In this document: piece by piece, positions 2,526 through 32,687 of the stretch | How positions within the stretch are numbered: the stretch's first letter is position 1 | Layout of the letters: every line of letters begins with the position of its first letter | Virus record (IMG/VR): IMGVR_UViG_2623620501_000013 | DNA length: 32,923 bases | From: a virus | Taxonomy: Duplodnaviria; Heunggongvirae; Uroviricota; Caudoviricetes | Direction: 5' to 3' (one strand) | Notes under the pieces: generated by a model | What the model was told of the DNA's origin: nothing | The model's input: the letters and a program-made list of their open reading frames with translations, nothing else | Databases searched by the model: none | Program-made: the position numbers and the translations under genes

Positions 2526-2554
2526 GCCGCCAGTCTGGCAGCATGGACAGGTCA

Positions 2555-2582
2555 GAATCAGGTGAGGGTGTTCAGCACTTAA
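2555..2582 (-). promoter_or_regulatory. Copy 3 of conserved late-operon motif (core GGGTGTTCAGCAC on + strand)
   Basis: Core 13-mer at 2566-2578 is identical to the copies at 14482-14494 and 22641-22653. It lies between the gp45-like stop (2579) and the gp46-like start (2525). Confidence 0.4.
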
Positions 2583-3232
2583 TTAACCGGCGTGTCAGAC
2601 ATGCCGTGTGGGGTTGGATGTTTGTGCGTTCCGATTTTAACGCCATTAATGGTGACGTCAACGGAGGTAATCACTCCACCCACATGGTTGATATTGCCTT
2701 CAAAGGTGGCAGTGTATCCCTTGCCCCCACTGATGGCCATGCCACCGTTGCCGGTGATTTTGCCTTCCACCGTCAGCCTGTCACTGGCTGTCAGTAACGG
2801 TGTCGTGAATGTGGCGTTCTCCTCTGCCTCAACCTCGTAGCGTTTGCATTTCACGCGATAAACGTCACATTCGGTTTCAATAACCCGTCCGCGCTTCAGT
2901 ACGATTTTCGCGCCTTCATCGGTATACAGGGCCACTTCCCCGGGGTTCAGTTCCGTCAGACGATATGCGCCGTGCTCTGTGGCCACCACGACAGTATGGG
3001 AGGTATTGCCGTTCAGCGGAACGGCAATACCCATTGAGCCGGGCGGCGGGGATGTGGTGAGGCCGTAATGCTGAAAATACTCCGCACCGTCCAGCTGTTC
3101 GCCAGCCAGCCCGTTAAGCTGAAGCAGCTGTACTTTGGTCGAACTGTCCACCGTACCGGTCACCACCCTGAATGCCTGGCGAACGGCGGCCAGTGCCTGC
3201 TGTACGCGTTGATTAACTTTGTCCCACATCAT
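2579..3232 (-). CDS. Baseplate assembly/spike protein V-like (Mu gp45 position)
   Basis: 217 aa; synteny downstream of the P-like tail gene; translation has a gpV-like N-terminal region. Confidence 0.6.
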   Translation of the reverse strand: MMWDKVNQRVQQALAAVRQAFRVVTGTVDSSTKVQLLQLNGLAGEQLDGAEYFQHYGLTTSPPPGSMGIAVPLNGNTSHTVVVATEHGAYRLTELNPGEVALYTDEGAKIVLKRGRVIETECDVYRVKCKRYEVEAEENATFTTPLLTASDRLTVEGKITGNGGMAISGGKGYTATFEGNINHVGGVITSVDVTINGVKIGTHKHPTPHGMSDTPVN

Positions 3233-13324: not shown

Positions 13325-14449
13325 TTACTCATCTCCTGCGTAACGGGCGACATCCTCTGGATCGACGCCCATCATTGAACAAATGGCGATATCAACATCG
13401 ACGTCATCGCCGGTTTTAATCTGCGCCGGGGCAGGCGACGGCGTTTTGGGTGGTTTGCCGCCGGTCTGGGTCTGACTGAGCGCAACAAGTTTCGGTGCGT
13501 TATCCAGCCAGGACTTAAAGCCGTTGATATCGCGGCTGGCGTAATCTTTCGCCCAGCCTTCCTGTGCCGGAAGCAGTCGCCCGTCAGACAGCGCCGCCTG
13601 AATCAGTGCCCCGGCTTCGGCCTCACCGGACTGTTGCGCCAGTGCGGCATAACGCCCCTGAAGTTCTTCGAAGGCAGCAAGGGAAATGTGTTTTGACGGG
13701 TCATAGGCACTGGCTGACAGGCTGGCGATTTGCTCGTCTTTCTGATTCAGCAGGGCCAGCAGGCTGACGGATGCCGCCGCCGTTCCCTGACCGTTCGAAA
13801 TCATGTCAACGACCTTTTGCAGCTCGTTTTTGATATCTTCCGCCGTTGAGGTAACCGGGAGGTTAAGCATCCAGCGCAGACTGGACAGCAAATCGTTTAA
13901 CAGTTCTTCATCCACTGTTGTGGTCTCCGTTTCAGTTGACAGACTCGCCAGACGGCTGGCCGCAGCCAGCATGACCGCGTCCATACCGTCCAGCGCCGGG
14001 GTATTGGTCAGTGCGGCGTGTAACAGTTCGATGACTTCGCCGCGCCGGTTGTATCCAAATACCGGGGAAATAAATTTGTACTCACCGGCGGCAATCATGG
14101 CCGCCGCGTTCTCCGTCCACTCCACACCGATGGCATACAGGCCCGAACCTTCACGCCATTCCACCTGGCTGAACCAGCCCGCCGCCGGTGCGGGCTTGCC
14201 GTTGTTTACGGCGCGCAGCGTCTGATGTTCGTAATCAATGACAAAAGGCGTGGCGCGGGCGGCCACCTGTGCGACAAGCTGCGCGGCCAGTTCAGCAGTC
14301 AGCACCCATTTACCGCTTTCGACTTCATCGGTATGTGGGCGACCATCCACCGCGCTGAACTCGCCTGCCGGTAACAGCTGGATTTCGCTGTGGGTTGCTT
14401 TAGTAATTTCGAGGCTTAACGCCGCAATTTTCAGTTTCATACGCGGCAT
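13325..14449 (-). CDS. Head maturation protease/scaffold I-like protein
   Basis: ORF open from 14494, but the GTG there sits inside the conserved late motif; the first ATG is at 14449 (MPRMKLKIA...). The exact start is uncertain. Confidence 0.65.
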   Translation of the reverse strand: MPRMKLKIAALSLEITKATHSEIQLLPAGEFSAVDGRPHTDEVESGKWVLTAELAAQLVAQVAARATPFVIDYEHQTLRAVNNGKPAPAAGWFSQVEWREGSGLYAIGVEWTENAAAMIAAGEYKFISPVFGYNRRGEVIELLHAALTNTPALDGMDAVMLAAASRLASLSTETETTTVDEELLNDLLSSLRWMLNLPVTSTAEDIKNELQKVVDMISNGQGTAAASVSLLALLNQKDEQIASLSASAYDPSKHISLAAFEELQGRYAALAQQSGEAEAGALIQAALSDGRLLPAQEGWAKDYASRDINGFKSWLDNAPKLVALSQTQTGGKPPKTPSPAPAQIKTGDDVDVDIAICSMMGVDPEDVARYAGDE

Positions 14450-14464
14450 GATGACGGAAGGGGA

Positions 14465-14500
14465 AGCCGGGGTACTGTGGAGGGTGTTCAGCACCCTGCC
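14465..14500 (-). promoter_or_regulatory. Copy 2 of conserved late-operon motif
   Basis: GGTACTGTGGAGGGTGTTCAGCACCC on the + strand matches the copy at 22631-22656 at 27 of 30 positions; it lies just upstream of the I-like gene start. Confidence 0.45.
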
Positions 14501-14649
14501 ATAACGCGAAAGGATAAAAGGGGAAATAAAACCGTTTTTAAAACCCTTTTAAAAACGATTCTGACGGCATTTATGGGATGCGGTGCTGTTATGCCTCATC
14601 CATGAAGCGTTTATGCTGTCACAGCCGATTACAGCGCGTTTGTCGCCAT

Positions 14650-22116: not shown

Positions 22117-22492
22117 CCCCTCCGCCGCGCAGTCTGGAAAACAGGCCGAACAGCGATGAAATTTCCTGTTGATAAAGAAAGGTCAGTATCTTGATGGATA
22201 ACGCCGAGACACCGACCGCACACAATGCATCGAGTGGCTTGTCGTTGTAGTGGGTCAGCCACTGCATCAGTGACGCAGCCACGCCAGCCCCCAGAACGCC
22301 AACCACAAACGCGACGAGCAGGTGGATAGCCATTCGCCATACCGGGATTTCTTTCTGCTGCGTGACAACAAAAAGCGCTCCGGCAAACGCGCCCACCACA
22401 ACCCCGAAATCGGTATTGGTGAGAAGGCCAAACACACTGGCACCACCGATGGTGACTGCCACAGCTCCGCCGCCTGATAAGGGTTCAGACAT
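22100..22492 (-). CDS. Holin-like membrane protein
   Basis: Multiple Gly/Ala/Val-rich transmembrane segments; ATG at 22492 has an AGGAG site 6 nt upstream. The ORF is also open from 22552. Confidence 0.5.
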   Translation of the reverse strand: MSEPLSGGGAVAVTIGGASVFGLLTNTDFGVVVGAFAGALFVVTQQKEIPVWRMAIHLLVAFVVGVLGAGVAASLMQWLTHYNDKPLDALCAVGVSALSIKILTFLYQQEISSLFGLFSRLRGGGGGNGK

Positions 22493-22625
22493 GAGTTTCT
22501 CCTGTAAATCTGAGCCACTGACGGCCCGTAAATAACACCCGGTCAAAGGCACAGAATGACTTTTGCCGGGCGCTATCCCTTAAGGTGCCTTGTGGTCTGA
22601 GTGGACAGGGTAAACGGTATGCTGT

Positions 22626-22663
22626 GGTGGGTACTGCTGGGGGTGTTCAGCACCCCCGGCAGG
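22626..22663 (-). promoter_or_regulatory. Copy 1 of conserved late-operon motif upstream of the lysis cassette
   Basis: GGTACTGCTGGGGGTGTTCAGCACCCCC on the + strand; contains the inverted repeat GGGGGTG-N5-CACCCCC. Confidence 0.45.
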
Positions 22664-22680
22664 TTGATTATCTGGATGGG

Positions 22681-22968
22681 TTAAAGAGAAGCGAGTTTTA
22701 ATGGTGGCTTATAACATGCCCGCGCCAGCAGGTTAGCTCTTTCCACGGCATTACGCATTTCCCGTTCTGCGTCAATCATTCTGTTTACGGCTGACAGCAC
22801 TTCATCATGATTCGTTACTGATTCCGGGCTTTGGGCCTGTTTCGCCAGGTAACTGGATAAACTGCACATTTCAGCATGTCGGCGACGGGCTGCATCCCGG
22901 GCCTTGTCTGAAAATGCGGTATATTCACCGAGTACTGCATAGTCGATATCGGTGTCAGAACGCATCAT
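22681..22968 (-). CDS. Hypothetical protein
   Basis: 95 aa with a strong AAGGAGA ribosome-binding site; sits between the Mor/C terminator and the lysis cassette. Confidence 0.5.
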   Translation of the reverse strand: MMRSDTDIDYAVLGEYTAFSDKARDAARRRHAEMCSLSSYLAKQAQSPESVTNHDEVLSAVNRMIDAEREMRNAVERANLLARACYKPPLKLASL

Positions 22969-22995: not shown

Positions 22996-23463
22996 TTAAT
23001 CAAAAAGCCCCACCTGGGTGGGGCTTTTCAGCGAAGTCTGTTTTTGTCGTCGGTGTATCAGTTGCCATGCGTACCGGTCTGAAATGCCGTAACGGGGACA
23101 GAGCAGTGCCAGCGCCTGCCGGTGTGAGCATCCGCCTTTTACATGCTGCTGTAAATCAGCCATAAAACGGGTGTTACGCAGGGCACGTAACGCATGATCG
23201 CAACGGGGAATGTAAAACGGTGCGCCGCCAAGAAAACGGATCAGTTTGTTGATTTCGTCTTCGGTCAGCACGTCATGTAACAGGGCATGGACACCGCCGG
23301 TGCGTTCGGCGTGTACGCCGGTTTTACCGCTTAACGTCACGCCACCAAAAGAACGAATCAACCGGGTCAGGGCGGGGAAGCCAATCACGCTAATCAGTTG
23401 CTGCACGGAATCGGGCAGCAGTGCCTGCGCATCGCGAAGATCTGTTTCACTGAAGGTCTGCAT
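22996..23463 (-). CDS. Mor/C-family transcriptional activator
   Basis: 155 aa with a C-terminal helix-turn-helix-like segment (...RYGISDRYAWQLIHRR...); position between gemA-like and lysis genes as in Mu. Confidence 0.65.
   Translation of the reverse strand: MQTFSETDLRDAQALLPDSVQQLISVIGFPALTRLIRSFGGVTLSGKTGVHAERTGGVHALLHDVLTEDEINKLIRFLGGAPFYIPRCDHALRALRNTRFMADLQQHVKGGCSHRQALALLCPRYGISDRYAWQLIHRRQKQTSLKSPTQVGLFD
23003..23028 (-). terminator. Intrinsic terminator overlapping the 3' end of the Mor/C-like gene
   Basis: Near-perfect palindrome AAAAGCCCCACC-TG-GGTGGGGCTTTT; on the minus-strand RNA the stem is followed by UUUUUGAUUAAUG. Confidence 0.6.
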
Positions 23464-23492: not shown

Positions 23493-23520
23493 ATTATAGC
23501 CATACATGATCGCCTGTACA
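23493..23520 (-). promoter_or_regulatory. Sigma70-like promoter candidate for the Mor/C-like gene
   Basis: Minus-strand TGTACA (23520-23515), 16-bp spacer, TATAAT (23498-23493), then GGAGA 8 nt before the ATG at 23463. Confidence 0.4.
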
Positions 23521-23529
23521 GACCATAAA

Positions 23530-23556
23530 AAACCTCCGCGTTTGCGAAGGTTTTTG
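23530..23556 (-). terminator. Intrinsic terminator after the secreted-protein moron
   Basis: On the minus-strand RNA: CCUUCGC-AAAC-GCGGAGG (7-bp stem with one G-U pair) followed by UUUUUUAUGG. Confidence 0.5.
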
Positions 23557-23562
23557 TTCATA

Positions 23563-30644: not shown

Positions 30645-32687
30645 TTAACGGTTGTTTGTGCCGTTTTTCTTTAAATTGCGTTCGCGTTCAGATGCGAATA
30701 AATAAAGTTCTTCTTTTTCCTTTTTCTCCGGGCGTTCCAGTCCATATCCCAGATTAAAGTCAGGCTTCTGCGTAATGGCCGGGGTAAGCTCGCGTTTAGC
30801 CTCTTCGATTTTCTGCGTGGCCCGTGCAATGCGGCCCTTGACGCGTTTCTCCAGTTTTTGTTCGATAACTGGTTTAGCGAAGGCATCAACCTTGTTACCG
30901 TTCCAGATGGCATCGCAGATATAAGAGCCATCAGCCCGCCGGACAATGACGCTGTTTGCATCATGAATATCGTAACTGACCCTGACTTCATTCCCGTGCT
31001 CTGCGGCCAGATCATATGAGTAATAAATATTGTTGAATAACTGAATTTCCCCGCGAAATGTTTTGCGCGTCACTTCCGGCCTGAACATTTCATGCAGTTC
31101 TTCCGGCGACAGGAAATCAATTTCAACATTCTGCTCTTTTATCAGTTTCCGGCGATACGCTGCCGGGCTGTAATGCTCGCCATCCTCTTTGCGAGGAAGG
31201 CTGCTGTGTGGCCGGTTGTTATAGCGTCTGACCTCCAGCTCTATGGCTGCCATCAGTTGCTCAAAGGTAGGGATTTCATCCCTCGCCTTAACCTGCCGTT
31301 TTGTCAGCTCTTTCCCTTTGTGGGTGGCCTTAATGGCTGACTGCATAATCCGTTGCTGCATCATTACGGTTTCCTTGTCTGCATCCCTTGCGCAGTACGT
31401 TTGGAAACTCAGGGCCACGTCTTTGGGTATTTCCTTGTTAACCCTTTCAATCACCCCGCGCCCCTGCGGGTTACCTGGTATCCCCGTGTGATGTTCCACA
31501 CCCAGACGGGGCAGAATCCCGGTAATATCGGCATCAAGCACCAGGTTTTTTTCGCCGCCCCCGTTATCGGAGTAATAAATCAGCGGTATCCCGTGCTGTG
31601 CCATGCCGTAACGTAACGCATCAGCAACGGCTATCACGTTCTCCGACAGGGACAGTGACCAGCCCACAATAAAGCGTTGTCCTGCATCCATAACCAGCGT
31701 CACTTCTGGCCGGAAAATATTGCCGGTCAGGGGGTTAAACGCGGTCATTTTCATACAGTGACCATCCCCGACCCATACCGCATTAACCGGTAATGATGTC
31801 CACTCGCGCCGCACAAAGGGATTGAGCGAACGCCAGGCTGAACCTGTGGAGCGGAAACGCTCTTTAACAATCACCGGGACGCTGCTTAACACCCGTCTTA
31901 CTGCGTGAACTGAAGGCAGTGCCGCCAGCATTCCCGCATCGTTCGCGTGTTTTTCATGCCACCAGGCTGAAAACTCGCGATACGCATATTCAACGGTCGG
32001 GCGCTTCCATGAGCGATAGAACATAAAGAAATCGCTCAACCACCAGACCTGCTCCCACGGTGTTCCCTTATGATGACCGGGAGCCAGTAACGCCAGTAAC
32101 TGATTGGCATCACCGCGCGCCATCACCCAGCTGGAGTACCAACTATCCAGGCTGCCTGTGCTGACACCGGTTCGCTTTCCCTGACGTGCATTTGCAGTAT
32201 TAGCTGCTTCGATAATGCGGTCAGGTAACGCCCCCATGCGCACACCATCAACGATGTGCTTTAACGCGGCCTTCCTTGTCATTCCGGCGTATTCACGCAG
32301 TTTATGCACTTCAGTAGCCAGCAATATCCGCGCATCAGCGATGGCCTTTTGCTTGTCAGTCAGTGCCTGGACTTCGCGTAATGCCAGTTCCGGGCATTTG
32401 ACCATCACCTCCAGTTCATCGCGAACGGCGACGTTTTTAACTGCCTTCTGCTCAACCACGGCGGGCAGTTGCGTATCTTCCAGGACCTGATGGGTCAGGC
32501 GCTTACGTAAAACTTTCTGCGCTTCAGCGGGCAGGCAGTCGATGTGATACTCGAATGCTTTGGTGCCTTCACGCTTGCGCTTCCATTCCGGGTGCGTCTC
32601 TGTGATCCGATTGAGCGTCCAGCGCACCCCCTGAACTGTACCGGGCAAACCAGGAAGACCGGCCAGCTCATTGGCTGAATAAAACAT
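30645..32687 (-). CDS. MuA-like DDE transposase
   Basis: 680 aa; size, position after the Ner-like gene (TAATG overlap) and translation consistent with the Mu transposase family. Confidence 0.85.
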   Translation of the reverse strand: MFYSANELAGLPGLPGTVQGVRWTLNRITETHPEWKRKREGTKAFEYHIDCLPAEAQKVLRKRLTHQVLEDTQLPAVVEQKAVKNVAVRDELEVMVKCPELALREVQALTDKQKAIADARILLATEVHKLREYAGMTRKAALKHIVDGVRMGALPDRIIEAANTANARQGKRTGVSTGSLDSWYSSWVMARGDANQLLALLAPGHHKGTPWEQVWWLSDFFMFYRSWKRPTVEYAYREFSAWWHEKHANDAGMLAALPSVHAVRRVLSSVPVIVKERFRSTGSAWRSLNPFVRREWTSLPVNAVWVGDGHCMKMTAFNPLTGNIFRPEVTLVMDAGQRFIVGWSLSLSENVIAVADALRYGMAQHGIPLIYYSDNGGGEKNLVLDADITGILPRLGVEHHTGIPGNPQGRGVIERVNKEIPKDVALSFQTYCARDADKETVMMQQRIMQSAIKATHKGKELTKRQVKARDEIPTFEQLMAAIELEVRRYNNRPHSSLPRKEDGEHYSPAAYRRKLIKEQNVEIDFLSPEELHEMFRPEVTRKTFRGEIQLFNNIYYSYDLAAEHGNEVRVSYDIHDANSVIVRRADGSYICDAIWNGNKVDAFAKPVIEQKLEKRVKGRIARATQKIEEAKRELTPAITQKPDFNLGYGLERPEKKEKEELYLFASERERNLKKNGTNNR

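Follow-up and report, generated by a model that had tools for sequence, protein, structure and literature searches.

A GCTGA-N6-TCAGC box as the probable activator site of three late promoters in a Mu-like prophage of E. coli

Introduction

The late promoters of phage Mu have -10 hexamers and lack -35 hexamers, and the activator C binds in them a 16-bp imperfect dyad centred at -43.5, protecting the DNA from about -30 to -55 (PMC2582627). The sequence QPDLF of Mu C has been identified as a clamp-binding motif that is needed for late transcription (PMC12867686). Here we analyze a stretch of 32,923 nucleotides (the window) that matches, at 100% identity, a prophage of E. coli chromosomes; of 5426 complete genomes, 58 contain it. 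The original prediction held that a short motif repeated upstream of three late operons marks late promoters read by a Mor/C-family protein encoded in the same DNA. Comparative data from related prophages support this reading, in which binding by the protein and the 5' ends of the transcripts are predicted from sequence.

Results

Gene layout of the prophage

The prophage is Mu-like, with every phage gene on the minus strand in the RefSeq annotation. Its gene order on that strand begins with a Ner-like gene, a MuA-type transposase (30645-32687) and a MuB-like ATPase, continues with early genes and GemA, and then reaches the Mor-family gene (22996-23463) and a gene for a 95-aa protein. The lysis and packaging genes come next, namely two holins (first ATG at 22492), endolysin, terminase, portal, and F-like and G-like genes. 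They are followed by a Mu-like protease (13325-14440), major head protein, sheath, tape measure, gp44, gp45 (2579-3229), gp46 (2175-2525) and gp47.

Some features were also seen outside the window. In the chromosome NZ_CP082831.1, the regions on both sides of the Mu-like prophage (L001 31755-33095 and L023 6474-7076) contain truncated phage genes: a capsid gene without its N-terminus on one flank, with portal and tail genes beyond it, and an HK97-type prohead protease gene without its C-terminus on the other, with terminase genes beyond it. On the basis of these truncated capsid and protease genes, it seems that the Mu-like prophage integrated among the head genes of another prophage that was already resident. 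At its tail-fibre end, left of the window (L023 3893-6271), one gene is annotated as incomplete and about 1.1 kb of unannotated sequence precedes a tail-fibre-domain gene; this end of the prophage may be rearranged or degraded.

A 13-mer repeated ahead of three late gene blocks

The claimed repeat is real. The 13-mer GGGTGTTCAGCAC, as read on the plus strand, has three exact copies in the window, at 2566, 14482 and 22641, and all of them lie in non-coding gaps ahead of late gene blocks, as originally described: between the 95-aa ORF and the first holin, between a virion-morphogenesis gene and the protease gene, and between gp45 and gp46. The copies share one orientation and are upstream of the genes, as had been stated, but because the phage genes without exception run along the minus strand, the 13-mer as quoted is the reverse complement of the gene sense, which reads GTGCTGAACACCC. 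Two measurements had to be revised. The lysis and protease copies are identical at 24 of 30 positions rather than 27, and the distance from the centre of the 13-mer to the start codon, given earlier as 34-45 bp for two copies, is 48 bp at the protease gene and 47 bp at gp46 (155 bp at the holin gene). From the centre of the protease copy to an upstream in-frame ATG the distance is 39 bp, and relatives do not keep this ATG. Allowing up to two mismatches, the window contained 7 matches to the 13-mer against 1.12 expected from shuffled sequences. Random copies scattered in number through coding regions were not found: beyond the three exact copies there were four matches, all partial, antisense and inside coding sequence, and all scoring below the shuffle maximum with the site matrix described below.

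Conservation of the box in related prophages

Homologues of the 155-aa Mor-family protein with 44-81% identity were traced to contigs of related prophages from Salmonella, Serratia, Trabulsiella, Xenorhabdus, Photorhabdus, Intestinirhabdus, Buttiauxella and Morganella. A genome scan with the single 155-aa protein as the query returned no matches, and an alignment-based genome scan returned 16 loci. Sites in these relatives were searched with a pattern limited to motif positions 3-11. Every sufficiently long locus was found to carry two copies, the first just after the activator gene and ahead of the lysis genes, the second ahead of the Mu-like protease gene; ten relatives, with activators 44-81% identical, have the box in both places. 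We aligned 22 sites from the window and the ten related prophages, numbering from the first G of GTGCTGAAC. GCTGAA (positions 3-8), C11 and C15 are invariant, conservation reaches approximately position 25, and positions 26-41 are unconserved. Positions 42-47 then read Y-A-n-n-(A/C)-T, with A43 and T47, both outside the selection pattern, invariant in 22/22 sites. They correspond to A(-11) and T(-7), the pair of positions that matters most in a sigma-70 -10 element. The symmetry of the box is also kept, GCTGA (positions 3-7) standing against TCAGC (positions 14-18), with the imperfection that C4 is opposite A17 in half of the sites.

A matrix built from the 19 sites of relatives, with the window sites left out, recovered exactly three sites in the window, scoring 31.6, 30.2 and 28.8 bits; the next non-site scored 9.0 and the shuffle maximum was 12.6. 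The same matrix scan found no additional copies in the window or in Mu, nor in the 16 kb that adjoin the left end of the window. The scan of the prophage and its relatives that had been proposed as a check therefore yielded three window sites only, and boxes at matching gene positions in the relatives. Searching with gp46 homologues led to four more prophages with a box directly after the gp45 stop codon, followed by the -10 sequence CAGACT or CACACT at positions 42-47 and by the gp46 ATG at positions 54-56. In the window and these four relatives the gap between gp45 and gp46 is always 53 nt, which is the exact size of the promoter. The same three gene positions thus carry the box in relatives.

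We also considered that the copies of the motif might be a chance repeat, a mobile repeat, or sites for packaging, transposition or gyrase action. The last of these derives some interest from the protease copy, which adjoins an A-tract element resembling the region of Mu's central strong gyrase site. This element occurs once, whereas the box occurs three times, and three exact occurrences of a 13-mer within 33 kb are far more than chance would produce. Moreover, the copies all have the same orientation, lie before operons and keep a fixed distance to a -10 hexamer across genera. We regard this group of explanations as extremely improbable. The A-tract element itself (window positions ~14515-14575; TTTTTAAAAGGGTTTTAAAAACGGTTTTATTT in gene sense) follows the G-like gene and precedes the protease promoter; it is kept in the relatives L005 and L028 and is weaker in L003. 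In Mu, the similar region lies shortly before PI and contains the cut site annotated for the central gyrase site (Mu 17879), and the element may be the equivalent of the strong gyrase site.

Anatomy of the three putative promoters

At the lysis promoter, the activator box covers 22629-22653 on the minus strand (GTGCTGAACACCCCCAGCAGTACCC in gene sense; 31.6 bits with the relatives-only matrix). Its dyad halves are at 22647-22651 and 22636-22640, and the -10-like hexamer TACCCT occupies 22607-22612 on the same strand, at alignment positions 42-47. Transcription is predicted to start near 22600 (+/-3), so that some 108 nt of leader would precede the holin ATG at 22492, a start with a good Shine-Dalgarno sequence. 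The box of the head promoter, before the I-like protease/scaffold gene, lies at 14470-14494 on the minus strand (GTGCTGAACACCCTCCACAGTACCC in gene sense; 30.2 bits). There, the -10-like CATCAT (14448-14453) is separated by a 7-nt spacer from the protease ATG (14438-14440), so that hexamer and start codon together span only 14438-14453 (minus strand). The arrangement at the baseplate promoter is similar: the box at 2554-2578 (minus strand; GTGCTGAACACCCTCACCTGATTCT in gene sense; 28.8 bits) starts on the base directly after the gp45 stop codon, and the -10-like CAGACT (2532-2537), a 6-nt spacer and the gp46 ATG (2523-2525) make up positions 2523-2537 of the minus strand.

In each site, a 25-bp box that contains the imperfect dyad GCTGA-N6-TCAGC is separated by 16 unconserved bases from a -10-like hexamer of the form YAnnnT. 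The -10 hexamers of the window (TACCCT, CATCAT and CAGACT) are weak, and there is no -35 hexamer 17 bp before them: the consensus at positions 19-24 is (C/T)GCTnC, in agreement with TTGACA solely at position 5 of that hexamer, plus position 1 in 8 of 22 sites. A sigma-70 scan at the lysis site reported no promoter. With +1 set 7 nt after the -10 hexamer, the centre of the dyad (10.5) would fall at about -43.5 relative to the predicted start, and the box would extend from about -53 to about -29.

To compare these distances with Mu, mapped Mu starts were fixed via the Mu genome and the promoter oligonucleotides of PMC4461284. The promoter-proximal Mu half-site ATAA starts 28 bp before the -10 hexamer in Plys, PI and PP, and in the window and its relatives TCA(G/A)C likewise starts 28 bp before it. 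The prophage therefore resembles Mu in the position of the dyad near -43.5, in the 28-bp spacing from half-site to -10 and in the absence of a -35 hexamer. It also resembles Mu in having promoters before the lysis genes and before the protease/scaffold gene I, and an activator gene directly upstream of the lysis genes. The sequence that is read appears to be another one, as GCTGA-N6-TCAGC is unrelated to the Mu sequence TTAT...ATAA(CCCC) and the site matrix has no match in Mu. The place of the third promoter differs as well, being the gp45/gp46 junction here, whereas PP of Mu lies inside gene N, upstream of gp44. Neither a mom gene nor a fourth site was found in the window or in 16 kb beyond. 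Overall, we consider it highly probable that the motif is the activator box of three Mu-like late promoters, serving the lysis and packaging, head, and baseplate and tail-fibre blocks.

The motif could also act as an RNA hairpin between operons, for instance one that terminates or attenuates transcription, directs processing or stabilises the transcript. This reading draws on the lysis copy, which lies inside an inverted repeat of 13 pairs (CTGCCGGGGGTG...CACCCCCAGCAG, 22634-22662) that was flagged by a terminator scan and folds at -21 kcal/mol (z = -3.78). The protease and gp46 copies, in contrast, fold no better than shuffled sequences (z = -1.18 and -0.50), and no U-tract follows the copy at any of the three sites. 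The small repeat GTG-N5-CAC within the motif is lost in relatives, which read GTGCTGAACCCC. Conservation had been said to extend beyond this repeat, and rightly so: the conserved dyad is GCTGA-N6-TCAGC. Within that dyad the left half is invariant, and position 17 varies between A and G opposite the invariant C4, without any compensating change. A hairpin would also leave unexplained the conserved -10 hexamer at a fixed distance. With significant folding confined to the lysis copy and the small repeat not conserved, we rejected the hairpin or terminator as very improbable and retain the activator box as the preferred reading. The 13-pair inverted repeat around the box is a feature of the lysis promoter only. 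It lies upstream of the predicted start and would enter RNA by read-through from the activator and 95-aa genes. A similar overlap is known from Mu, where the terminator of the C gene overlaps the C site of Plys.

The Mor/C-family protein as the presumed activator

The gene for the presumed activator, a 155-aa Mor/C-family protein (22996-23463, minus strand), is located directly upstream of the lysis genes. The protein matches the Pfam family Mor (PF08765) with 28.5 bits against a cut-off of 24.9, and a profile of its subfamily finds the solved structure of Mu C (9l0x) at an E-value of 9e-4 and that of Mor (1rr7) at 0.77; by these profile scores it is closer to Mu C than to Mor. In common with Mu C and Mor it keeps the GG..(F/V)YIP(R) linker and a C-terminal helix-turn-helix region. 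Its C-terminal Q..LF, in the form QVGLF, is nearly invariant in the subfamily and resembles the clamp-binding QPDLF of Mu C. Identity to the two Mu proteins is merely ~20-28% in the alignment. Furthermore, about 25 residues (FGGVTLSxKxG...RxGGV) are additional in the 155-aa protein, and its LCPxYGISDRxxW helix region is distinct, which fits a DNA specificity different from that of Mu C and Mor. Unlike Mu, with its Mor-then-C cascade, the prophage has one recognisable gene of this family. A second could not be recognised, and the neighbouring 112-aa and 95-aa proteins are without a Pfam match.

More distant prophages offered a further comparison. Two Serratia prophages whose activator is 37% identical have a different box, TGACGAACCCCATCATCTGAATC, before their lysis and protease genes. 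The closest isolated phage by activator identity in a tblastn search (41%) is Klebsiella phage ST405-OXA48phi1.1, and it carries CCACTGAAGCCCnTCAAyyT before its lysis, protease and gp46 genes. A blastn search against isolated phages gave holin similarity only. The box thus diverges together with the activator, a correlation that supports the 155-aa protein as the reader of the box without proving it.

It is also conceivable that these are late promoters whose box is read by some other factor, such as the 95-aa protein, another early phage protein or a host regulator. The 95-aa protein, for instance, has no Pfam match and is encoded beside the activator gene in close relatives too. For host regulators, inspection of the box revealed no match to the LexA, sigma-32, sigma-E and sigma-54 consensus sequences. 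The Mor-family protein is the sole recognisable transcription activator in the right place and the box changes in step with it, and the geometry of the sites is that of Mor/C sites (PMC2582627). Another reader is therefore unlikely, and the box is most probably read by the 155-aa Mor-family protein, as comparison of activators and boxes indicates.

Several observations concern the surroundings of the activator gene. On the minus strand, at 23493-23560, a strong terminator-like hairpin with a U-run (z = -5.9) follows the upstream 112-aa gene, and after it comes a near-consensus sigma-70 promoter, TGTACA-16-TATAAT (10/12). A second hairpin with a U-run (22999-23030, minus strand) lies inside the last codons of the Mor-family gene and overlaps those for QVGLF. 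The gene looks like an insulated unit. The gene for the 95-aa protein (22681-22968, minus strand) comes after the activator gene and ahead of the lysis promoter; the protein is conserved at this place in close relatives (92 and 95 aa), and the Serratia relative has a 62-aa gene there.

In some relatives the region upstream of the activator gene was of interest as well. In Xenorhabdus, Photorhabdus and Morganella prophages (L010, L011, L015 and L016), the late-box-like sequence CCACTGAACCCCTTCAAC is found ~60-115 bp before the activator gene, followed by a -10-like AATACT at the usual spacing and then by a terminator-like hairpin. Similarly, a Tenebrionibacter relative has a box of 20.8 bits upstream of its activator gene (L012 9938). 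The presence of a box at this place in those relatives suggests autoregulation or a middle-type promoter. The window itself has an ordinary promoter there and not a late box. A box-like sequence upstream of the activator gene in a Salmonella relative (L003 9937) was rejected as a late box, being the TGTACA -35 hexamer of an ordinary promoter.

Predicted leaderless starts of the protease gene and gp46

The original caller's GTG start for the protease gene, inside the motif, had been doubted, and the doubt was justified: RefSeq places the start at ATG 14440, and the start sequence ATGAAA is kept in ten relatives. When the protease domain is aligned with Mu I, the match begins at residue 20 here and at residue 22 there, an N-terminal length in keeping with the start that is annotated. 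With this start codon, the ATG follows the -10 hexamer by 6-7 nt in 10/10 protease sites, and at the gp46 sites of the close clade it does so by 6 nt in 5/5. RNA polymerase normally starts at such a distance, 6-7 nt past the -10 hexamer. The two genes also have the weakest anti-Shine-Dalgarno pairing among the 47 annotated genes of the prophage (+1.2 kcal/mol for the protease gene and -1.5 kcal/mol for gp46, most others having about -4 to -10 kcal/mol). The gene preceding the protease gene ends 210 nt before it, and the gp45 stop codon 53 nt before gp46. Very short or leaderless transcripts had been suggested from the motif positions, and this suggestion gains strength from the spacing between -10 and ATG together with the weak Shine-Dalgarno pairing. 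Given this spacing of 6-7 nt and no ribosome-binding site, leaderless mRNAs are predicted for the protease and gp46 operons, with transcription starting at the A of the ATG in both genes.

This layout is not the one found in Mu. The protease and gp46 start codons abut the -10 hexamer, whereas the PI transcript of Mu has a leader of ~24 nt with a ribosome-binding site, so leaderless late mRNAs would not be a trait of the whole family. Among closer phages, too, the leaderless reading may not apply throughout, since gp46 of Klebsiella phage ST405-OXA48phi1.1 starts with GTG at the same spacing, and codons other than AUG initiate leaderless translation poorly. Among temperate phages, an established example of a leaderless mRNA is that of lambda cI from PRM. 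The prophage genes are like cI in that the predicted start is at the A of AUG and a Shine-Dalgarno sequence is lacking; they are unlike it in being late structural genes behind an activator-dependent promoter, and in that their 5' ends are predicted. For this enterobacterial Mu-like clade as a whole, we give even chances to expression of the head and baseplate operons as leaderless mRNAs.

Discussion

While the type of element described here is well known and the overall mechanism is the known Mu mechanism, the box sequence, the location of the third promoter and the layout with a single activator are new, as are the probable leaderless starts. In the literature searched, the coverage of which was incomplete, neither this box nor leaderless late mRNAs of Mu-like phages were described. 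By analogy with Mu, the Mor/C-family protein would bind the box as an oligomer, and the bound activator would substitute for the missing -35 contact and recruit or activate the host RNA polymerase. Its QVGLF C-terminus may also engage the beta clamp, as in Mu C. At the head and baseplate operons, the start codon would directly adjoin the activator-dependent promoter, and the transcript would begin with AUG.

The analysis defines a late-promoter code, GCTGA-N6-TCAGC with 28 bp from the proximal half-site to the -10 hexamer, that covers Mu-like prophages of E. coli, Salmonella, Serratia, Morganella, Xenorhabdus, Photorhabdus and related genera, and it corrects the start of the protease gene. The natural pairs of activator and box (of the GCTGAAC, CACTGAAG and GACGAAC types) could serve in studies of DNA recognition by Mor/C proteins, a timely subject in view of the recent cryo-EM structures and of the clamp link reported for Mu C. 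If the leaderless prediction is true, the first protein of each such operon would depend on initiation at the operon's own promoter and not on read-through from upstream. Leaderless expression of structural genes would, if confirmed, be unusual for an enterobacterial phage.
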